Of a stretch of 31,283 bases of DNA, positions 3,701 to 24,136 are shown piece by piece. The stretch lies in IMG/VR virus record IMGVR_UViG_2579778786_000007; one strand, written 5' to 3'. Source of the stretch: a virus. Its lineage: Duplodnaviria > Heunggongvirae > Uroviricota > Caudoviricetes. The notes beneath the pieces were generated by a model. It saw nothing but the letters and a program-made list of their open reading frames with translations. It was not told the origin of the DNA and did not search any database. A program made the translations under genes and the position numbers. Each line of letters starts with the position of its first letter. The first letter of the stretch is position 1.

Positions 3701-3927
3701 TGGCTGATGCAATGGATCTCGTACAGCAGCGCGTTGAAGAAGAACGCCAGCGCCATATCCGTGCTGCCCGTGCCAAAACACCGGGCGTGTCTCGCGTGCT
3801 TTGTATTGAATGTGAAGCGCCAATTCCGCCAGCACGCCGCCGCGCCATTCCGGGTGTGCAGCTTTGCATTACCTGTCAGGAAATCGCAGAGCTGAAAGGC
3901 AAACATTACAACGGAGGTGTTGTATGA
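3700..3927 (+). CDS. TraR/DksA-family C4 zinc-finger protein
   Basis: 75 aa with CxxC...CxxC (CIECEAP...CITCQE), typical of phage TraR-like proteins. Confidence 0.7.
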   Translation: MADAMDLVQQRVEEERQRHIRAARAKTPGVSRVLCIECEAPIPPARRRAIPGVQLCITCQEIAELKGKHYNGGVV

Positions 3928-4781
3928 GCACCATCCTGAAATGGGCGGGAAATAAAACCGCCATTATGTCCGAACTGAAAAAACATCTTCCTGCTGGCCC
4001 GCGACTGGTTGAACCTTTCGCGGGGTCCTGTGCTGTGATGATGGAGACGGATTATCCCAGCTATCTGGTTGCGGATATTAATCCTGATTTAATCAACCTC
4101 TATAAAAAGGTTGCCGCTGATTGTGAATCGTTTATATCTCGCGCCAGAGTTTTATTTGAGATCGCAAACAGGGAGGTGGCTTATTACAACATAAGGCAGG
4201 AGTTTAATTACTCAACTGAAATTACTGATTTCATGAAAGCGGTATATTTCCTGTATCTCAATCGTCACGGTTACCGTGGTTTATGTCGCTATAACAAGAG
4301 CGGGCATTTCAACATTCCCTACGGTAATTATAAAAATCCGTATTTCCCTGAAAAAGAAATTCGCGCATTTGCAGAAAAGGCCCAGCGAGCAACGTTTATC
4401 TGCGCCAGCTTTGATGAAACGCTGGCGATGTTGAAGGCGGGAGATGTGGTGTATTGCGATCCGCCGTATGACGGTACGTTTTCCGGCTATCACACTGATG
4501 GTTTCACTGAAGATGACCAGTATCACCTGGCATCCGTTCTTGAACATCGGTCATCAGAAGGACATCCGGTCATTGTTTCTAACAGTGACACATCCCTGAT
4601 CCGTTCGCTGTATCGCAATTTTACTCACCACTATATCAAGGTAAAACGCAGCATCGGTGTGGCAGCTGGCGAGGGTAAATCAGCAACAGAAATCATTGCT
4701 GTTTCCGGGCCGCGCTGCTGGATGGGATTTGATTATTCGCGTGGCGTGGATAGTTCTGCCGTGTACGGAGTACGTGCATGA
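3924..4781 (+). CDS. dam: DNA N6-adenine methyltransferase (Dam-like)
   Basis: ATG 3924 with GGAGG 6 nt upstream, overlapping the TraR stop (ATGA); N-terminal ILKWAGNK AdoMet-binding motif and catalytic DPPY (CDPPYDGTF). Confidence 0.85.
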
Positions 4782-7192
4782 GTCATGCCGATATGAACAA
4801 CTGCTGCGGCTTTAACGAGGCTGCCGCAGCGTTCTCATGGAACAGCCCGAAAAAGGCCATTAACCCTTATCTGGACCCGGCGGAAGTTGCGCCGGTTTCT
4901 ACGCTTTCAAACCTGATCACTCTGTACGCTGCCGATAACGAGCAGGAACAGTTGCGCCGCGAGGCACTGAGTGATCAGGTCTGGGAGCGTTATTTCTTTA
5001 ATGAATCACGTGATCCTGTCCAGCGCGAAATGGAGCAGGATAAGCTCATTAGCCGGGCAAAGCTGGCGCATGAGCAGCAGCGTTTTAATTCAGACATGGT
5101 CATTCTGGCGGACGTCAACGCCCAGCCTTCCCATATCAGCAAGCCGCTGATGCAACGTATTGAATACTTCAGCAGCCTGGGCAGGCCAAAGGCTTATTCC
5201 CGCTATTTACGTGAGACGATTAAGCCATGTCTGGAACGACTGGAGCATGTACGCGACAGTCAGCTATCTGCATCTTTTCGCTTTATGGCAAGCCATGAAG
5301 GGCTGGACGGCCTGCTGATCCTGCCTGAAATGAGTCAGGATCAGGTGAAACGCCTGTCCACCTTGGTAGCTGCGCATATGAGTATGTGCCTTGATGCAGC
5401 TTGTGGTGATTTGTATGCCACCGATGACGTTAAGCCAGAAGAAATCCGCAAGACATGGGAAAAGGTGGCAGCGGAAACCCTGCGTCTGGATGTCATCCCG
5501 CCTGCGTTTGAGCAACTCCGTCGGAAAAGAAACCGCCGTAAACCCGTGCCCTATGAACTCATTCCGGGTTCGCTGGCGCGTATGCTGTGCGCCGACTGGT
5601 GGTATCGGAAATTGTGGAAGATGCGTTGCGAATGGCGGGAAGAGCAGTTGCGTGCTGTCTGCCTGGTCAGCAAAAAAGCATCTCCCTATGTCAGCTATGA
5701 AGCCGTGATGCATAAACGTGAGCAGCGCCGTAAGTCACTGGAGTTTTTCCGTTCTCATGAACTGGTGAACGAAGACGGAGACGCGCTGGATATGGAAGAT
5801 GTGGTAAACGCCAGCAGCAGCAACCCGGCGCATCGTCGCAATGAGATGATGGCCTGTGTTAAAGGTCTGGAGCTTATCGCGGAAATGCGCGGTGACTGCG
5901 CCGTTTTCTACACCATTACCTGTCCGTCACGTTTCCATTCCACGCTCAATAACGGCAGACCCAACCCGACATGGACAAATGCGACGGTAAGACAAAGCAG
6001 CGATTATCTGGTCGGTACGTTTGCTGCATTTCGTAAGGCGATGCACAAAGCCGGGTTGCGCTGGTATGGCGTGCGGGTGGCTGAGCCGCATCATGACGGC
6101 ACAGTTCACTGGCACCTGTTGTGTTTCATGCGCAAAAAAGACCGCCGCGCCATTACTGCATTGTTGCGTAAGTTTGCTATCCGTGAAGACCGTGAGGAGC
6201 TGGGCAATAACACGGGGCCGCGCTTTAAGTCTGAGCTGATTAACCCGCGAAAAGGAACGCCGACAAGCTACATCGCGAAATACATCAGTAAGAACATTGA
6301 TGGGCGTGGTCTGGCTGGCGAAATCAGCAAGGAAACGGGTAAATCCCTGCGTGATAACGCTGAATACGTTAATGCCTGGGCGTCTCTGCATCGTGTTCAG
6401 CAATTTCGCTTCTTTGGTATTCCGGGGCGTCAGGCGTACCGTGAATTGCGATTGCTGGCTGGTCAGGCGGCAAGGCAACAGGGTGACAAAAAAGCAGGTG
6501 CGCCGGTACTGGATAACCCGCGCCTTGATGCCATTCTGGCTGCTGCTGATGCTGGTTGTTTTGCCACCTACATTATGAAGCAGGGCGGCGTACTGGTTCC
6601 CCGCAAATATCACCTTATCAGAACAGCTTATGAAATTAACGAAGAGCCGACCGCCTATGGCGATCACGGTATTCGTATTTATGGCATCTGGTCACCCATT
6701 GCAGAGGGCAAGATTTGTACTCATGCAGTGAAGTGGAAAATGGTTCGTAAGGCCGTTGACGTTCAGGAGGCGGCAGCCGACCAGGGCGCTTGCGCCCCTT
6801 GGACTCGTGGCAATAACTGTCCCCTTGCTGAAAATTTGAACCAACAGGAGAAAGATAAATCAGCTGATGGGGACCCCAGAACGGACTTTACCCGCATGGA
6901 TGACAAGGAGTTGCACGATTACCTGCACAGTATGAACAAAAAGGAGCGCCGGGAACTGGCTGCAAGGTTACGTCTGGTGAAACCGAAACGGCGTAGAGAC
7001 TACAAACAGCGAATTACAGACCATCAACGACAGCAGCTCGTCTATGAACTGAAATCCAGAGGATTTGATGGCAGCGAGAAAGAGGTCGATTTACTCCTTC
7101 GCGGCGGCAGTATTCCGTCAGGAGCAGGCCTGCGTATCTTCTATCGGAACCAGCGTTTGCAGGAAGATGATAAGTGGCGGAACCTGTATTAA
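4778..7192 (+). CDS. A: Replication initiation protein A (rolling-circle replication endonuclease, P2 gpA family)
   Basis: 804-aa ORF, start overlapping the dam stop; size and position match gpA of P2/186. Confidence 0.85.
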
Positions 7193-7285
7193 TTACGCTG
7201 GTTAACAATTCGTGCTCTTAATAATACCAGGCATATCAAGCTGATAAGCGTAAAAAAAACGTTTTACATCAGTAAGATTATTATA

Positions 7286-7305
7286 TACTGTAAATATAAA
7301 CAGTG
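7286..7305. promoter_or_regulatory. LexA (SOS) box taCTGtaaatataaaCAGtg
   Basis: 17 of 20 matches to TACTGTATATATATACAGTA with correct CTG-N10-CAG spacing, in an AT-rich promoter-like region about 40 bp upstream of the orf62/DinI-like operon. Confidence 0.6.
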
Positions 7306-7346
7306 GTTATACATACAGTATTTCTTGTGGTGTCATAGGAGGAAAG

Positions 7347-7535
7347 ATGCAGGACTATTTTTTGGAGTCTTTGAAGCTCCAGCGCATTGATTTTTTTCTT
7401 AAGCTTGTAGCGGCTAGTGAGTGTAGTGATGAAGAGAAGGGGCTGGCTCTGCAGTGGGTTTCTGAATTGACTGATGAACTCATGGCAAAAATCAGAAGCC
7501 ACGAATACAACCGCTCAATGGATGTCATCAGCTGA
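7347..7535 (+). CDS. Small hypothetical protein (62 aa), first ORF of the putative SOS operon; possibly the N-terminal part of a split Tum-like gene
   Basis: Strong RBS AGGAGG 6 nt before the ATG; downstream frame overlaps the upstream-open frame of the DinI-like gene (7471-7535). Confidence 0.45.
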   Translation: MQDYFLESLKLQRIDFFLKLVAASECSDEEKGLALQWVSELTDELMAKIRSHEYNRSMDVIS

Positions 7536-7545
7536 GGTGACTTTT

Positions 7546-7779
7546 ATGCGCATTGAAATAATGATCGATAAAGAGCAGAAGATTAGCCAGTCTACCCTGG
7601 ACGCCCTTGAATCCGAGCTTTACCGCAATCTGCGCCCCCTGTATCCCAAAACGGTAATCCGTATCCGTAAAGGTAGCTCTAACGGTGTGGAACTGACCGG
7701 ACTGCAACTGGACGAAGAAAGAAAACAAGTGATGAAAATTATGCAGAAGGTGTGGGAAGACGACAGCTGGCTGCATTGA
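7546..7779 (+). CDS. DinI-family protein (phage 186 Tum antirepressor-like)
   Basis: 77 aa; MRIEI...DALESEL...WEDDSW aligns with E. coli DinI (MRIEV...DALAGEL...WESADDW); GAGGTG RBS; location after A matches the 186 SOS operon. Confidence 0.75.
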   Translation: MRIEIMIDKEQKISQSTLDALESELYRNLRPLYPKTVIRIRKGSSNGVELTGLQLDEERKQVMKIMQKVWEDDSWLH

Positions 7780-7892
7780 TTTTGTCAATAGACGCTTGTT
7801 TTTACTAATCAAAAAGGGTTACATATGAGTGAGAGGCGATGTCAATCGGATATCGCCTTGTTTTTTGTCAAGAAAAGAATAATAGGCTAAAA

Positions 7893-8570
7893 ATGAAAAT
7901 TAATAATGTAGCGTTACCAATATCTCTTGCTGTAATCCTAACTGGTTGCGTGCCACATGCTTCTAACCGAAATATCACTGCTATTGAAGTGGTGAAGCCT
8001 GCTATTGGGCAAAGTGCTACCGCCTACATGGGCGATCCCATTATCACATCTGCTACTGGATTTAAAACGGACGTACTAGAACTTGGTGCGGCTAATGGTG
8101 CATTGTCTTCTATCGCTGCTGGTACATATTGCAGTGAGGGGAATGGAATTTACCGCAATTATCATAACCCTCAAGCTGTTGCGTTAAAAAATCTCTATGG
8201 GCAAATCGGTAACTATGTTGATTATGTTAGTTACGATGCTGCAAAAAATGAGATATCACCGCCAAATGGTACTTCTTATACTGCATCAGAAATTTCTATC
8301 AAACGTGTTCCTGATGGGCTGTGTCGAGTTAGTAACTCATTGGTTAAGACTATCGAATACAATGGAAATGCAGGCGGTGTAATGAAGTTCACCTATCGTG
8401 AATTTGCAAACGATATGGCTCGTGCAGCATTTACAACAGATTTTTCTGTAGATTCTAAGGGAAGTGACGTTATCGCTTACAAAGGTGCCAAGTTCAAAGT
8501 GAACAAGGCTGATAACTCGTCTATTTCTTATACAATTATTTCTGGCTTTGACAAGGCTGTCACGTTCTAG
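7893..8570 (+). CDS. Predicted outer-membrane lipoprotein, unknown function (cargo gene)
   Basis: Signal peptide with lipobox (AVILTG|C) and no Asp at +2; AT-rich relative to the phage backbone; no recognisable catalytic motif. Confidence 0.6.
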   Translation: MKINNVALPISLAVILTGCVPHASNRNITAIEVVKPAIGQSATAYMGDPIITSATGFKTDVLELGAANGALSSIAAGTYCSEGNGIYRNYHNPQAVALKNLYGQIGNYVDYVSYDAAKNEISPPNGTSYTASEISIKRVPDGLCRVSNSLVKTIEYNGNAGGVMKFTYREFANDMARAAFTTDFSVDSKGSDVIAYKGAKFKVNKADNSSISYTIISGFDKAVTF

Positions 8571-8674
8571 TTTTCACGCTTACTGAGTATGTTACGATTT
8601 TGCACATTCTGCATAAGCGCGCATGTCTATGCTGCATGAGATCGCATGATCGTTTGAGGATCTTTTGTGTTAAG

Positions 8675-8698
8675 GCCCGCCAGTTCTGGCGGGCTTTT
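8675..8698 (+). terminator. Rho-independent terminator candidate (GC-rich hairpin plus T-tract)
   Basis: gcccgcc-agttct-ggcgggc followed by TTTT, about 105 bp downstream of the lipoprotein gene. Confidence 0.5.
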
Positions 8699-8743
8699 GC
8701 GTAGATCATGCAGGTGCATGAAAACCACTACATAAAGCGGGCA

Positions 8744-8762
8744 GGCGTGGCGGGGATACGAG
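8744..8762. other. cos-like sequence (candidate cohesive-end site)
   Basis: GGCGTGGCGGGGATACGAG shares its first 13 nt with the 186/P2 cohesive end as I recall it (GGCG(T/A)GGCGGGGAAAGCA); positionally consistent with cos lying between the right-end accessory genes and Q. Confidence 0.3.
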
Positions 8763-8829
8763 CGCGCGCAACGGGTTGTCATTCAAACTCCAATGCTATA
8801 AAACTGTGTAATACAAACAACTAAAGTAG

Positions 8830-10584
8830 GTGGCCTCAGTGGAACTGCAAGCAAATGCTCGAACCTTAACAAACGTGTTATCTGTAAATAAAAAATATAT
8901 AGTCCCTAGATTCCAAAGAGAATATTCTTGGGGGAAGGAACAAGTAAGTGAACTTTGGCATGATATAGTTTCCAATATTCATTACCAGGAGGATGGGCAG
9001 TATCAATATGATGAGTATTTCATCGGTGCTCTCGTTTTGGTCGGGCAGGAAACTAGCTCTGAGCTGATGATTGTAGATGGTCAACAACGTCTTACGACTC
9101 TTACTATATTGTTATCAGCATTATGTGATAAATTTAAGTTGATAAATGAGTTGGCTGTAGCTCAATCAATATATAATAATTATATATCTGGTATGGATGA
9201 CGATGGCAGACCTTTTTTTAAATTAGTTAATGAAACTCCTAAGCCATACTTTCAAAACAACATTCAGCATATTGATAAGAGAAATGAAGGACCGGAGTCC
9301 CTTGAAGAAAGAAACTTGCAATCTTCATATAATGATTTAACTGAGTATCTTTCAGAAGATAATCTTTGCCAGACATTAGGAGTAGATAGAGAGAAATTTA
9401 TCTACTTGGAAGCGTTGAAGGCTGTGCGGGATCAAGTTCTACGGTATCTGAAAGTGATTTATATTACAGTTAATGATGAAGATGAAGCTTATACAATCTT
9501 TGAAACTCTGAATGCTAGGGGATTAAACTTAAGTTATGTAGATCTTATAAAAAACAAATTATTTAAGAAACTGAATGGCACACATCCTGATGATGATGCA
9601 AAAACTAAATGGAATAAAATTAGGCAAATAATTGCTAGTCGTAATGGTGTCGGTTCTATCGAAACATTTATCCGTCATTGGTGGGTGTCAAAATATTCTT
9701 ATGTAAGTAGTGACACTCTTTATAAAGCTTTTCTGGATAAGTGGAAAAAAGGCGACATTGATGCTTCAGCGTTCATTGATGAGCTACTTTCAGATGCCGA
9801 GATATATGTGAAAATATCATCGCCTACAGAACAGGATTTTCCTGAACTGGAAATGAAACCAGTTTATCGAGGTTTGCAGGCATTAAGGCTGTTTAACATA
9901 TCTCAGAATAAACCATTTTTGTTATCTTTATTTAAGGCAAGAGCAAGAGGAACGCTAAAACTTGTTGATATGAATAATGCAGTGCTGTCAATTGAACGCT
10001 TTCATTTTATGTTTAATGCTATTTGTTCATTGCGACCATCAGGTATTGAAAGTGCGTATGCTAAAGCTGCTAGGGCTTTAGTGGATGAAGGTTCTACTAA
10101 AGCTAGTAATAGACAAGTAATAAAGTCTTTGCTTGAAATGTTGGTGAAGAGAAAACCAGACATTAATATGTTTGTTGAAAAGTTTGTTATGCTTAAATTT
10201 TCAAATCAAGAGTTGAAAAATAAAAGGTTGATTCAGTACATTTTTAATAGACTTGAGTTACATCACATGAAAACGGGGGAGTATATGCCTGATTCATTAA
10301 CATTAGAGCATATTCAGCCTCAGAGTGTGGGGGATTCTGAAGTATATAGCATGATAGGAAATTTATTACCACTTTCAAAAGAATTAAATGAAAAAGCTGG
10401 AAATAAGTCTGTTGTGGATAAGCTTGAAATTTATAAACAATCACAATATGCGCTAGTTAAAATTTTTATTGATGAATTTGAAAATAAATATCAAGGAGAA
10501 TGGACGCCCGATCATATGAGGTCAAGAGCTGCTGAACTAAGTATTTTATCGTATAATTCAGTATGGAAATTGGGGCGTGAGTAA
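8830..10584 (+). CDS. DUF262/DUF1524 two-domain nuclease, GmrSD-like (candidate type IV restriction / anti-phage defence protein)
   Basis: 584 aa. N-terminal DUF262/ParB-like motifs (PRFQREYSW; DGQQR at 9076-9090; FETLNARG); C-terminal DUF1524/His-Me-finger-like motifs (TLEHIQPQ about 10306-10320; GNLLPLSKELNEKAGNKS). Strongly AT-rich; GTG start. Confidence 0.75.
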   Translation: MASVELQANARTLTNVLSVNKKYIVPRFQREYSWGKEQVSELWHDIVSNIHYQEDGQYQYDEYFIGALVLVGQETSSELMIVDGQQRLTTLTILLSALCDKFKLINELAVAQSIYNNYISGMDDDGRPFFKLVNETPKPYFQNNIQHIDKRNEGPESLEERNLQSSYNDLTEYLSEDNLCQTLGVDREKFIYLEALKAVRDQVLRYLKVIYITVNDEDEAYTIFETLNARGLNLSYVDLIKNKLFKKLNGTHPDDDAKTKWNKIRQIIASRNGVGSIETFIRHWWVSKYSYVSSDTLYKAFLDKWKKGDIDASAFIDELLSDAEIYVKISSPTEQDFPELEMKPVYRGLQALRLFNISQNKPFLLSLFKARARGTLKLVDMNNAVLSIERFHFMFNAICSLRPSGIESAYAKAARALVDEGSTKASNRQVIKSLLEMLVKRKPDINMFVEKFVMLKFSNQELKNKRLIQYIFNRLELHHMKTGEYMPDSLTLEHIQPQSVGDSEVYSMIGNLLPLSKELNEKAGNKSVVDKLEIYKQSQYALVKIFIDEFENKYQGEWTPDHMRSRAAELSILSYNSVWKLGRE

Positions 10585-10610
10585 ATGCCGGGGGGGGCCC
10601 AGCATATTTA

Positions 10611-11657
10611 TCAAAAAGAATCGTTTGTGAAATTTAGGGAGTAGGCATCAAAGCGTATTGCTTCTTCGCCTAGCCAATAGTTAAGTTCTTGTAGCTGTTT
10701 CTGCAGGGGCATCAGTTCGTTGCGGACAAAAACACGACTAGCCTTCTCCACATCACCAAAGCCCCCAACATTATTAGGCATTATCCCCATCATTTGCGGC
10801 GGCACACGGTGTGCCGCCATCATGTCGTCCCGGCTCACGTTCTTGATATTCAGAAACTCATCCTTCGCCGCGACTTCTGACAACGGGATAATCTGAAGCC
10901 CGTCCTTTTTGCCGTTAGGAGAGTACATAAACAGGTTGCGGAAGTTGCCTGGCCCTTTGGCACTTTTCATTGCATTGCGGAGGTTGTTCACATCCTCCTG
11001 GTTCTGCGCGGCATCGGTCATGTACATGATGAAGCCTGCATGACTGCCGTTAATATAATACTTCCGGCGGAACAGCGTGGCGGACTCGTTGAGCAGGGCT
11101 GATGGAATGGCAGAAAGATAACCTGGCAGGCCGTAGATCTCCTGGTTGATGTCCGGTTCCATCAGATGAAAAATGCTGCCTTTCGTGAACTGATACGGCT
11201 GGGTTGTCATACCGTATTGCACAAACCAGTAGGTATCCAGGTCTAACCCGCGTCGGGTGTATTTTGCCAGAGCAGGCTCAAGGGCGATAACTTCACCGAA
11301 GCGGTTCGTGCGTTTCTCCAGGTAGGCGTTACCAAATACCAGATAGTCCTGCACAAAACGTGAAAAAGCCTGCTGGCTGAGCAGCGGGTGAGGGATGTAG
11401 GTACTGGTCAGAATGTTGCATTTCACCGCAATTGGTGAGCTGTGATGCACGGCGGCGCGGAAGGTTCGTGCCAGTCCGTCAAAGCTGACGGGCGGCTCAT
11501 ACCAGCGGTCCATCTGTACGCATTCCACATAGTCCAGCAGTTCTCGGCGGTCCAGAACAGGAACGGGATCGCCGAAGCTGAATGCTTCGGCTGTAGTCTG
11601 GCTTTTAAGCTGGATCTGTTTCGTCGCCGCAGCGCGGTTCTTCTTACTCTTTCCCAT
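10611..11657 (-). CDS. Q: Portal protein (P2 gpQ family)
   Basis: About 348 aa, minus strand, start ATG overlapping the P stop (TGATG); size and position match P2 Q. Confidence 0.9.
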   Translation of the reverse strand: MGKSKKNRAAATKQIQLKSQTTAEAFSFGDPVPVLDRRELLDYVECVQMDRWYEPPVSFDGLARTFRAAVHHSSPIAVKCNILTSTYIPHPLLSQQAFSRFVQDYLVFGNAYLEKRTNRFGEVIALEPALAKYTRRGLDLDTYWFVQYGMTTQPYQFTKGSIFHLMEPDINQEIYGLPGYLSAIPSALLNESATLFRRKYYINGSHAGFIMYMTDAAQNQEDVNNLRNAMKSAKGPGNFRNLFMYSPNGKKDGLQIIPLSEVAAKDEFLNIKNVSRDDMMAAHRVPPQMMGIMPNNVGGFGDVEKASRVFVRNELMPLQKQLQELNYWLGEEAIRFDAYSLNFTNDSF

Positions 11658-13252
11658 CAAAAAATCTCCACAATATTGCTGGTATTGGCGGATTCGCCCT
11701 GCAGCGGTTCGTTAAACAATGCGTGCATCGTTGCCCAGGCCAGATCGGCGTGGCTGGCTTCTTCGCTGCGGCTGGCTTCATAGGTCGGGCGGTTGCCGCT
11801 GGCGGTGGTTGCGCGACGGATTGCCATGAATGACTGCGCAATGTCGGTGTGTCCGGCGTCAAACTCCAGACGGCGGTGGCTGATAATGTCGTAGGCCTTG
11901 AGTACCAGAGCGTTTTTAACGTTGGGGTTGTAGACAAACTCCCGGACGGCTGGAAAAAACGCTTTCACGTTCTCGTAAACCCCGTGGCCGACACCTGTCG
12001 AGTCGATGCCGATGTAGGTCACGTTGTACTGCTCGGTCAGTTTTTTGATGGCGTCAGCCTGGGCGCGGAAGTCCATCCCGCGCCACTGGTGACGCTCAAG
12101 AATGCGGAACTTACCACCCGGCACGGCTGGCGGTGCCACCACCACGCATCCGGCACTGTCGCCGTTCTGCGTACCTTTTGCCGGGTCATAACCGATCCAC
12201 ACTTCGCGCCAGCCAAACGGGCGCAGGGCCAGTGCATGAAAGTCGGTCCAGACTTCCCAACTGTCCACCATGCACGCTTGCAGCTCGCTGAGCGGGAACA
12301 CGGACGCGAGATCGTCCACAAACTCACACATCAGCAGGTTCTGGTATTCGTCCGGGCTGTACTCCATGCGCAACTGGTCGAGGTCGAACAGGTTACAGCC
12401 GCCCCGCACCGCATCTTCCACGGTGACTATCTGGCGGTACTGCCCGTCTGCGCACAGCAGGCCGGGGGACAGATTGCTGTGGGACAGGTCGATGTCCACC
12501 TTATCGGCTTTGTTGCGCCCTCGGTTGAACAGCGCACCGGACCAGAACGGATAAGCACTGTGTGTCAGACTGGATGGTGTGGAAAAATAGGTCTGTCGCC
12601 ATTTTTTGTGAATAGCCATACCGGAAGCCACTTTGCGCAGCTCCTGGAATTTCGGTATCCAGAAATATTCATCCAGATACAGGTTGCCGTGGTAACTCTG
12701 GGCCGTGCGGGCATTGGTGCCGAGGAAGTAAAGCGTGGCCCCGTTAGGAAGCACCATCGGATCACCTTTCAGCTCCACCTCGACTTCTTTGGCGAAATCG
12801 ATGATGTACTGCTTAAAGACGTGAGCCTGTGCCTTACTGGCAGAAAGGAAAATCTGGTTACGTCCGGTAAGCAGGGCGTCAATCAGGGCTTCACGGGCAA
12901 AATAGAAGGTCGCGCCGATCTGGCGTGACTTTAGCAGGTTGCGGATGCGGTTGGTTTTTCCGGCTTCCCACCAGTGGCGCTGGTAGTTGAACATGGAGGA
13001 ATGGAAAATTTCTTCCAGCTTCTCAATCTGTTCATCGGTGAAAACATTCTTTTCAGGCTGACGGCGCGGGCCTTTGTTGCGGTTGGCGACGTTAGGGTTT
13101 AAGTCGGCTTCGTTGCCGCCATTGTTAAACTTGCCGATCCGCGCGTGGCGCTCAGACTGGCGCGCCAGCAGGTCAATCTCTTTGAAATCTTTCCCTTCTT
13201 TGTGCTCCTTCATAATGAGCTGGCAGTAGCGTGCGGCGGTGGTGAGCTGCAT
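11657..13252 (-). CDS. P: Terminase ATPase (large) subunit, P2 gpP family - the 531 codons downstream of an in-frame TGA
   Basis: Long minus-strand ORF divergent from O, with conserved terminase blocks; P2 gpP is about 590 aa, so the N-terminus is missing from this ORF. Confidence 0.85.
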   Translation of the reverse strand: MQLTTAARYCQLIMKEHKEGKDFKEIDLLARQSERHARIGKFNNGGNEADLNPNVANRNKGPRRQPEKNVFTDEQIEKLEEIFHSSMFNYQRHWWEAGKTNRIRNLLKSRQIGATFYFAREALIDALLTGRNQIFLSASKAQAHVFKQYIIDFAKEVEVELKGDPMVLPNGATLYFLGTNARTAQSYHGNLYLDEYFWIPKFQELRKVASGMAIHKKWRQTYFSTPSSLTHSAYPFWSGALFNRGRNKADKVDIDLSHSNLSPGLLCADGQYRQIVTVEDAVRGGCNLFDLDQLRMEYSPDEYQNLLMCEFVDDLASVFPLSELQACMVDSWEVWTDFHALALRPFGWREVWIGYDPAKGTQNGDSAGCVVVAPPAVPGGKFRILERHQWRGMDFRAQADAIKKLTEQYNVTYIGIDSTGVGHGVYENVKAFFPAVREFVYNPNVKNALVLKAYDIISHRRLEFDAGHTDIAQSFMAIRRATTASGNRPTYEASRSEEASHADLAWATMHALFNEPLQGESANTSNIVEIF

Positions 13253-24030: not shown

Positions 24031-24042
24031 ATACCGTCATTT

Positions 24043-24060
24043 TGTGTGAATAACGGTACA
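24043..24060. promoter_or_regulatory. TGT-N12-ACA dyad (late-promoter activator site for the FI operon)
   Basis: TGTgtgaataacggtACA, about 80-95 bp upstream of the FI start in the G/FI intergenic region. Confidence 0.45.
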
Positions 24061-24136
24061 ACTGCGCTTAGCTGCTTGTCAGACACAATCACTTCAACAT
24101 AGGGCGAAGCCTAATCCAATCAGGAGGTTCGCCACT

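Follow-up and report, generated by a model that had tools for sequence, protein, structure and literature searches.

Introduction

In P2-like phages, the gpA-gpQ interval adjacent to cos was described as a defence hotspot (old/tin, 'TO') by Rousset et al. 2022 (PMC9122126), where, as cited there, it is ascribed also to Odegrip et al. 2006. In P2 itself, old and tin fill the slot on the A side, the only one in use, and cos and Q are some 170 nt apart. The cosL-Q position was likewise called a hotspot in PMC5694545, citing Dodd & Egan 1996; according to that account, foreign DNA at this site (retrons Ec67 and Ec86) replaces the short cos-terminator/Q-stop segment. In cos sites of the P2 family, about 55 bp form a conserved core (PMC9594776). 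In phage 186, the SOS operon downstream of A comprises the p95 promoter with a LexA operator over its -10 element, the single protein Tum with a DinI-like domain, the partial terminator t95a, the accessory gene orf97, and the terminator t95b before cos. The defence gene HEC-06 (Payne et al. 2024) combines DUF262 and DUF1524 in one chain of about 580 aa with a DGQQR motif and an EH-x-x-P HNH motif, and was described as embedded in an Hma system. In the preprint on this family, a representative is reported to work alone as a defence gene and phage resistance to be lost in the Q79A, R80A, E471A and H472A mutants (bioRxiv 10.1101/2024.01.29.577857).

Here, the A-Q region (7193-10610) of the viral record IMGVR_UViG_2579778786_000007 was analysed; the whole stretch of 31,283 nt is referred to as the window. 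With a probability of about 0.88, the region is the cos-proximal variable A-Q locus of a 186/Fels-2-type P2-like prophage, consisting of two backbone modules and two cargo slots. The host of the prophage is probably E. coli.

Results

Composition and layout of the A-Q region

The region is flanked by replication gene A on the left (4778-7192, plus strand; PF05840, E 1.3e-127), which is homologous to A of Fels-2, 4LV2017 and E. coli prophages, and by portal gene Q on the right (10611-11660, minus strand; PF04860). The GC content of 7193-10610 was 0.382 compared with 0.54 elsewhere in the window. In sliding-window analysis, the lowest-GC segment of 3418 nt in the whole sequence was 7154-10571 (0.379), which nearly coincides with the region, while the same-size windows elsewhere had a mean of 0.544 (sd 0.035, minimum 0.444). 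The AT-richness reported in the initial annotation was thereby confirmed, and all the features that it had named were found in the region. The dip was uneven, with 8620-8771 at 0.546 between AT-rich blocks of 0.396 and 0.347.

The region consists of four modules, in which two conserved backbone modules alternate with two cargo slots that are exchanged independently of each other. These are the conserved SOS-induction module (7193-7779), variable slot 1 with the right-end cargo (7780-8619, GC 0.396, delimited by alignments of 7 loci), the conserved cos module (8620-8771, GC 0.546), and variable slot 2 with the left-end cargo (8772-10740, GC 0.347 for 8772-10610), which includes the diverged 3' end of Q. 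Both this anatomy and the pattern of conservation and variability were observed directly.

Independent distribution of the segments

Fels-2, 4LV2017, RE2010 and others shared 98% identity with the locus from 7193 to about 8770, followed by complete divergence. Among the 5426 complete E. coli genomes, 7193-7777 with tumA/dinI was present in 1147 (95-99% conserved), the lipoprotein allele of slot 1 in 50, and the GmrSD cargo of slot 2 in 6, which contradicts a universal conservation of the lipoprotein or the GmrSD gene. The six genomes with the GmrSD cargo had five different A-to-Q spans, none of them with the lipoprotein gene (0/6). The identical GmrSD protein was elsewhere paired with DUF8087 in slot 1, and in Table S5A of Rousset et al. 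(PMC9122126) it stands beside a 141-aa ORF or without an extra gene. At least 7 states of slot 1 and at least 8 cargos of slot 2 were counted among loci with 92-100% identical flanks. The slot cargo at the A-Q loci was enriched in anti-phage systems, represented by HEC-06 here and by AbiU, retron II-A, bSEFIR and PDC-S49 in relatives.

SOS-induction module

A p95-type promoter was predicted on the plus strand at 7263-7305 (TTTACA at 7263-7268, a 17-nt spacer and TACTGT at 7286-7291). A predicted LexA box, TACTGTAAATATAAACAGTG (7286-7305, plus strand), overlaps its -10 element, the same layout as annotated for p95 downstream of A in 186. Across the window, the LexA consensus matched only here, against a chance expectation of 0. 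The promoter is followed by a TumA-like ORF of 62 aa (7347-7535, plus strand; phrog_698, E 5.9e-38) and a DinI-family, TumB-like gene of 77 aa (7546-7779, plus strand; PF06183, E 6.6e-23). For the latter, a start at 7474 was rejected, the real start being 7546. The TumA-like ORF was located upstream of dinI in all relatives compared; a Pfam search with it gave no match, and no similarity to residues 1-70 of 186 Tum, the N-terminal antirepressor half, was detectable. The DinI/TumB-like protein was 41% identical to Tum residues 71-145. Tum, a single protein in 186, is here divided between two ORFs, an arrangement shared with the Fels-2 annotation, which cites PSP3 TumB. The tumA/dinI pair, with its predicted LexA control, is core equipment of 186/Fels-2-type phages.

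Slot 1 and the lipoprotein gene

In the alignments of 7 loci, homology to alternative alleles ended at the dinI stop codon and returned at about 8620. The alternatives found in relatives were an empty slot (strain 2011C-3911), DUF4145, a 141-aa ORF, a KAP/PDC-S49 NTPase, HEPN_LA2681 and DUF8087. The terminator scan returned a hairpin with a T-run between dinI and the lipoprotein gene (7833-7859, plus strand; -16.6 kcal/mol, z -3.4), which by its position is a putative analogue of the partial terminator t95a of 186. The lipoprotein gene (7893-8570, plus strand) encodes 225 aa of the family phrog_1353, and its real start is ATG 7893. The signal peptide, MKINNVALPISLAVILTGC, ends in the lipobox LTGC, in agreement with the pattern L-x-G/A-C, and G18 and C19 were invariant across 22 homologues. 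Searches for a functional annotation and for a structural relative of the lipoprotein found neither. The gene occupies the place of 186 orf97 and has no detectable similarity to it (BLASTP E 4.7), both long ORFs having 243 codons.

The cos module

The cos module of 152 nt, with its backbone-like GC content, separates the two cargo slots. It was kept in all 8 close loci whatever the cargo, and was matched by 88 phage records. An intrinsic terminator hairpin was found just before cos (8672-8699, plus strand; -23.6 kcal/mol, z -4.87); none of 200 shuffled sequences was as stable, and the hairpin was kept in the aligned relatives. It is the analogue of t95b of 186.

The predicted cos cleavage region with the 19-nt cohesive-end sequence GGCGTGGCGGGGATACGAG was assigned to 8744-8762 (plus strand) by homology to 186 and P2. 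The 19-mer fits the P2-family type GGCG(A/T)GGCGGGGA..., and its 13-nt core, identical to that of 186 at 13/13 positions, occurred once in the window, with 0.07 occurrences expected. The neighbourhood from -40 to +26 had 52/66 identity to the annotated site of 186 and 48/66 to that of P2; the former value equals the identity between 186 and P2. The cohesive end departs from that of 186 at four of its 19 bases. The identical 19-mer with its flanks was present in Fels-2 and in many E. coli and Klebsiella prophages, and the SEN8 record opens at the same base of the site, annotated there as putative cos. The site is at the canonical position between the terminator and portal gene Q, and the terminase genes are intact. 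Position, uniqueness, identity to 186 and conservation in every relative thus agree with the initial assignment of cos.

Slot 2 and the GmrSD-like gene

Homology to relatives ended 7-9 nt past the cohesive end and returned, depending on the relative, at 10669-10741. The right boundary, which had been placed at the Q stop codon, is located inside Q according to the blastn breakpoints. The AT-rich variable DNA also covers roughly the 3'-terminal 60-130 nt of Q (GC 0.423 at 10611-10740), and the last 20-43 codons of Q were diverged in the C-terminal comparison of 10 Q proteins and by the blastn breakpoints; these codons travel with the slot-2 cargo. The second P2 variable site, between G and FI, is empty as initially annotated; a Caudo_TAP gene and the tail-sheath gene are separated there by 106 intergenic nt (24031-24136).

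The slot is occupied by an intact HEC-06-type GmrSD-like gene of 581 aa (8839-10584, plus strand), identical to WP_000422658. The start at GTG 8839 was fixed by the 100% identical 581-aa protein and by an ATG at this place in homologues. Domains and motifs were observed to be intact. In the 584-aa translation from GTG 8830, PF03235 (DUF262, GmrSD_N) matched residues 15-245 with E 1e-38 and PF07510 (DUF1524, GmrSD_C) residues 457-570 with E 1.2e-11, and the PADLOC profile HEC-06 (PDLC04154) matched over its full length (residues 1-581 against profile positions 1-566 of 569; E 3.8e-90). In the 581-aa protein, DGQQR is located at residue 80 and the (D/E)H motif, EHIQP, at residue 490, followed by NLLPLSKELNEKAGN. 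The SspE and mREase_IV (5.6e-16) profiles matched at the N-terminus only, and none of the NCBIfam models was reached. The closest solved structure was DndI, with the likeness mainly in the N-terminal domain. Within the wider GmrSD/BrxU/SspE/DndI family, the protein fits the HEC-06 profile rather than BrxU, SspE or canonical GmrSD, and it is only distantly related to the canonical type IV GmrSD models, SspE and DndI. The DNA of the gene was 99.8% conserved across the six E. coli genomes, and homologues with 52-56% identity were spread across phyla.

A putative cargo promoter was read from the sequence at 8776-8802 on the plus strand (TTGTCA, a 15-nt spacer and the extended -10 TGcTATAAA), and its layout was retained in the locus with an 86% homologue (L012). 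A generic promoter scan gave no more sites than chance and detected neither proposed promoter (7263-7291, 8776-8802); the cargo promoter is therefore offered as a candidate. No convincing plus-strand terminator was found after the GmrSD-like gene. An 86%-identical copy of the gene was also observed in Klebsiella lambdoid prophages, where its flanks still contain a decayed cos of the P2 type together with the upstream terminator and some 150 nt of Q.

Discussion

Comparison with the described hotspots

The locus resembles the gpA-gpQ hotspot in its position between A and Q and by cos, in its hypervariability and in the kinds of its cargo. In Rousset et al., A-Q is treated as one locus 'adjacent to cos', whereas here two slots are split by the cos module. 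The segment replaced at the cos-Q site of Dodd & Egan 1996, as that work is cited, corresponds to slot 2. The 186-related site carries retrons, as does slot 2 of the relative 4LV2017 (type II-A); in contrast, a GmrSD-like nuclease is present here and the exchanged segment also takes the last Q codons. HEC-06 was described within an Hma system, whereas this gene is in the cos-Q slot of a prophage. Both slots are known from earlier work (Dodd & Egan 1996; Rousset et al. 2022), and the exact GmrSD-like protein is already catalogued at the A-Q locus, as WP_000422658 (DUF262/DUF1524) is listed with DinI and a 62-aa ORF in Table S5A of P2 loci (PMC9122126). The region is a real but ordinary known cos-flanking cargo hotspot. 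It does not add a novel type of system; each of its elements, from the hotspot and the cos-Q insertion site to the SOS operon and the HEC-06 family, has been published before.

Alternative explanations

The initial annotation took the whole 3.4 kb as a single accessory island, and an acquisition as one unit between A and Q would agree with a GC content uniformly below that of the flanks at 500-nt resolution and with all the genes being on one strand. However, tumA/dinI and the cos module are far commoner than either cargo, the cos module has backbone GC, and both cargo segments occur in differing combinations across relatives. Since the four segments are distributed independently, the single island is refuted and its probability is next to negligible; the tumA/dinI pair and the cos module with its terminator are conserved backbone. 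The other parts of the annotation stood, namely cos, the empty G/FI site and the cargo on both sides of cos. The last is correct because close relatives swap slots 1 and 2 independently, and in phages that are otherwise 95-100% identical the lipoprotein segment and the GmrSD segment each give way to unrelated genes or are simply missing. Counting the lipoprotein as a core member of the SOS operon, a functional equivalent of orf97, is very improbable. Its position and long-ORF length do match orf97, and it is 98% conserved in Fels-2, RE2010 and many Klebsiella phages, but sequence similarity to Orf97 is absent, some 96% of the E. coli prophages with the same tumA/dinI lack the gene or have another in its place, and the slot can be empty.

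It is exceedingly improbable that the phage packages elsewhere or is defective and that its cos-like motif is a relic or has arisen by chance. Relics are conceivable because a decayed P2-type cos exists in an unrelated lambdoid prophage, and the four differing cohesive-end bases would suit one. The single copy, an identity to 186 as high as that between 186 and P2, the identical 19-mer and flanks in Fels-2 and in E. coli and Klebsiella prophages, and the canonical place beside Q with intact terminase genes all speak against a relic. Alternatively, the product of the GmrSD-like gene might lack activity or target the DNA of the host or the prophage, or the gene might be a selfish nuclease gene; the missing NCBIfam match and the nearest structure coming from a phosphorothioate-sensing system would be compatible with this. 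A role outside defence is nevertheless very improbable given the full-length HEC-06 match with both catalytic motifs intact, the conservation across the six genomes, the homologues across phyla, HEC-06 acting alone in defence, and the recognised defence genes, including AbiU, retron II-A and bSEFIR, that occupy slot 2 in relatives. The slot-2 gene is read as encoding a putative single-gene GmrSD-like type IV restriction enzyme of HEC-06 type.

Proposed function of the locus

For the A-Q element, the virion ends and the transcription, as well as LexA binding and restriction activity, are inferred from homology; its regulation, expression, cleavage positions and enzymatic specificity are proposed in the same conditional sense. 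By analogy with 186, LexA would repress the p95-type promoter, and upon DNA damage the TumA-like and DinI/TumB proteins would be made and act against the CI repressor, leading to prophage induction. The lipoprotein gene is probably expressed by read-through of the partial terminator or from its own weak promoter, its most likely role being lysogenic conversion or exclusion at the cell envelope. The terminator at 8672-8699 would end the rightward SOS/cargo transcript. Terminase would nick around 8744-8762, generating 19-nt 5' cohesive ends, and because of this nicking position the lipoprotein gene would be at the right virion end and slot 2 at the left. In the lysogen, a promoter of its own probably drives the GmrSD-like gene. 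The C-terminal His-Me/HNH nuclease (EH...N), under the presumed control of the N-terminal DUF262 NTPase (DGQQR), would destroy foreign phage DNA that enters the cell and is probably base-modified, thereby protecting host and prophage alike. Cargo exchange would proceed by homologous recombination between related phages via the conserved flanks dinI, the cos module and Q.

Two further readings are speculative and, taken jointly, rather doubtful. The Enterobacterales-restricted phrog_1353 lipoprotein may represent a novel factor for exclusion or conversion at the level of the envelope, and the cos module may serve as a fixed anchor for recombination, through which foreign genes would land preferentially at both virion ends. 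If the anchor reading is true, cassettes would travel with pieces of the cos module, and the Klebsiella copy would document the direct capture of a P2-hotspot cassette by an unrelated phage family. The A-Q region provides a clean, well-bounded case of a P2-like prophage with exchangeable defence genes at both ends of the packaged genome, and its breakpoints are useful for annotating P2-like prophages and for designing cosmids and cargo swaps.

Phage identity and base composition

The phage in the window belongs to the P2-like phages and is of the 186/Fels-2 type. The window starts within the integrase gene, which is followed by a 186-type CI repressor, Apl/CII/Fil-like genes, a TraR/DksA gene, a Dam methylase gene and replication gene A (4778-7192, PF05840). 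The portal gene Q (10611-11660, minus strand) is followed by the terminase gene P and the P2-type late genes. The host was probably E. coli, because the 7000-8771 segment matched a prophage of E. coli RM14721 with 100% identity. The Dam-type N6-adenine methylase gene (3864-4781, plus strand, PF02086) lies directly upstream of A, overlaps it and was present in all Fels-2-type relatives. In the interval between the integrase and the CI repressor, a minus-strand ORF of 63 aa (1221-1412) with a hydrophobic, signal-peptide-like N-terminus is surrounded by an AT-rich patch (GC about 0.36). Its same-position counterpart in strain KE47 carries the annotation 'YdcA family', and the patch may be a further small cargo position.

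The initial annotation had described 7193-10610, between the stop codons of A and Q, as an AT-rich composite island with cargo on both sides of a cos-like site. The AT-richness and all the features named were confirmed: the GC content of the region in the windowed analysis was 0.382, while the same-sized windows elsewhere had a mean of 0.544 (sd 0.035). The lowest-GC stretch of this size in the window was 7154-10571, with a GC content of 0.379. Inside the region, the segment with the cos site (8620-8771) had a backbone-like GC content of 0.546, whereas those of the flanking blocks on the A and Q sides were 0.396 and 0.347, respectively. The gap between genes G and FI, described as empty, was 106 nt long, with a tail-fibre assembly gene on one side and a sheath gene on the other.

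Conserved cos and SOS modules

The putative 19-nt cohesive-end sequence at 8744-8762 was compared with the cohesive ends annotated in the P2 and 186 phage records. From -40 to +26 around the first cohesive-end base, the window was identical to 186 at 52 and to P2 at 48 of 66 positions; 186 and P2 also share 52/66. The 13-nt core GGCGTGGCGGGGA, which occurs once in the window, is identical in 186. The same 19-mer and flanks were found in Fels-2 and every fetched E. coli relative, and with one base different in Klebsiella phage 4LV2017. The conservation stops 7-9 nt past the cohesive end, just after (C/T)GCGCGC, a motif kept in P2, 186 and 18 P2-like loci of other species, a few of them with a single-base change. 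The scan of the genome collection with an 18-nt cos pattern resulted in 18 usable loci, 12 of which had Q in range; most of the pattern matches were due to chance in GC-rich genomes, or possibly to P4-like satellites, and the loci are not centred on the matches. The proposed cos at 8744-8762 was upheld and is accepted by homology to the annotated P2 and 186 sites. Phage SEN8 was rejected as experimental support, since its record merely opens at a 'putative cos site', which is the same site. Within the module, a strong terminator hairpin spans 8672-8699 (-23.6 kcal/mol, z -4.9). Several GCATG/CATGC repeats (GCATGTCTATGCTGCATGAGATCGCATGATCG ... ATCATGCAGGTGCATGA) at 8620-8720, upstream of the cohesive end, were kept in all the relatives and could be putative terminase-binding elements.

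On the A side, a LexA box (7286-7305) was the sole match in the window, where none was expected by chance. It begins at the -10 element of a promoter composed of TTTACA, a 17-nt spacer and TACTGT, the same layout as in the annotated p95/LexA arrangement of 186. The product of the DinI-family gene (true start 7546, PF06183) shared 41% identity with the C-terminal half of 186 Tum. The 62-aa ORF upstream (phrog_698) is always the companion of the DinI-like gene; no similarity was found between this ORF and the N-terminal half of Tum. By analogy with 186, the SOS module would trigger prophage induction upon DNA damage. The segment 7193-7777, comprising the promoter, the tumA-like ORF and dinI, was detected in 1147 of 5426 complete E. 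coli genomes, and the module is core phage equipment rather than accessory cargo.

Cargo of the two variable segments

The variable segment from 8772 into the 3' end of Q (slot 2) carries the GmrSD-like gene, which encodes 581 aa with GmrSD_N and GmrSD_C domains. The assignment of its start to GTG 8839 is based on a database protein of 100% identity and on homologues that have an ATG in this position. The protein matched the HEC-06 models of PADLOC over the full length (3.8e-90) and contains the motifs DGQQR (residue 80) and EHIQP (residue 490). According to a preprint (10.1101/2024.01.29.577857), a HEC-06 representative protects E. coli against phages and requires the same motifs; related GmrSD enzymes cut glucosyl-hmC or otherwise modified DNA (PMC11411939). 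The PDB sequence search resulted only in distant DUF262 relatives, e.g. DndI (9JFL) and SspE. Full-length homologues with 52-56% identity (P0038-P0116) were abundant in cyanobacteria, among them Leptolyngbya, Nostoc, Anabaena and Calothrix, an unusually wide and well conserved spread for a single-gene defence protein. A plausible candidate promoter of the cargo, with TTGTCA, 15 nt and TGcTATAAA (extended -10), adjoins cos at 8776-8802, and its layout is retained in an 86% homologue. The generic sigma-70 scan remained at chance level (12 sites, 10.6 expected) and missed both proposed promoters. No plus-strand terminator was found 3' of the GmrSD-like gene; a lone weak minus-strand hairpin past the gene could serve Q.

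The 86%-identical gene copy was located in Klebsiella lambdoid prophages (loci L012-L015, cassette at about 4839-6937), with replication genes on one side and an Arc/antirepressor module on the other. In blastn, window 8674-10766 aligned with 4839-6937 of L012 at 76% identity. The flanks of this GmrSD/HEC-06 cassette comprise a P2-type terminator, a decayed cos (GGCGTGGCGGGGGTATGTG) and a stretch of about 150 nt with homology to the 3' end of Q. An unrelated phage family evidently acquired the cassette, flanks included, from a P2-like phage.

The segment between dinI and the cos module (7780-8619, slot 1) carries the lipoprotein gene, with the true start at ATG 7893 and the lipobox LTGC, in which glycine and cysteine were invariant in 22 homologues. 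Although the lipoprotein ORF and 186 orf97 both have 243 codons, homology between their products was rejected (E 4.7). The comparison of genomes indicates that this segment is likewise variable, because the lipoprotein allele was detected in 50 of the 5426 E. coli genomes versus 1147 with the SOS segment. In strain 2011C-3911, slot 1 consists of a 204-nt spacer only, and in other relatives it contains a DUF4145 gene, a 141-aa ORF, a KAP/PDC-S49 NTPase, a HEPN_LA2681 protein or a DUF8087 protein.

Relation to the known hotspot

The region is the same locus as the classic old/tin hotspot between A and Q of P2-like phages, which has been analysed systematically with 1,650 gene arrangements counted; WP_000422658, which is exactly the protein of this window, is entered in Table S5A of that study along with DinI and the 62-aa ORF (Rousset et al. 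2022, PMC9122126). PMC5694545 describes the cos-to-Q position as a pick-up place for foreign genes and cites the replacement of DNA between cos and a terminator of a 186-related prophage by retrons Ec67 and Ec86 (Dodd & Egan 1996). A small survey covered 12 P2-like prophages of different species: in six of them the cos-Q gap was empty and about 170-220 bp long, as it is in P2 and 186, and in the other six it held 1-3.6 kb of cargo. The initial annotation therefore correctly recognised a feature that is already known from the literature.

Separate exchange of the cargo segments

The sequence from 7193 to about 8770 was common to Fels-2, RE2010 and many Klebsiella prophages at 98% identity, and the megablast homology to the deposited phages ended abruptly just beyond cos. 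With blastn in 'distant' mode, the slot 2 DNA (8763-10620) had no match at the DNA level among 50,697 deposited phage records. The cos-Q cargo was an AbiU homologue in Fels-2, a type II-A retron in 4LV2017, a 463-aa ORF with function unassigned in E. coli RM14721, a bacterial SEFIR protein in strain 2011C-3911, a DUF4145 protein in isolate F95 and a RES-domain protein in strain KE47. The proposed placement of cargo on either side of cos was thus corroborated, both segments being variable among the relatives.

Four alignment breakpoints were determined: at the dinI stop codon (7779/7780), at about 8620, at 8769-8771, and, with a position that varies between relatives, inside Q at 10669-10741. 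The C-terminus of Q is homologous at the protein level yet strongly diverged and travels with the slot 2 cargo; this co-variation places the recombination breakpoints inside Q. The last 20-43 codons of Q (10611-10740, minus strand) were AT-richer, with a GC content of 0.42.

The GmrSD cargo was present in six of the 5426 E. coli genomes (99.8% identity), which had five different A-to-Q spans and in no case the lipoprotein. The identical GmrSD protein was also paired with DUF8087 and with DUF4145 in slot 1, and the published tables of Rousset et al. 2022 (PMC9122126) show it alongside a 141-aa ORF or without any additional gene. The partners of the lipoprotein allele were AbiU, a retron, the 463-aa ORF or the GmrSD gene. 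The different pairings show that slots 1 and 2 are exchanged separately, most simply via homologous recombination, for which dinI, the cos module and Q would provide the shared sequence. The observation of the initial annotation was confirmed and its interpretation stood in part: cos and the two-sided cargo were retained. The framing as a single island was rejected, as the slots are exchanged separately and the SOS module is core, and so were the stated boundaries, as the right-hand breakpoint lies inside Q.
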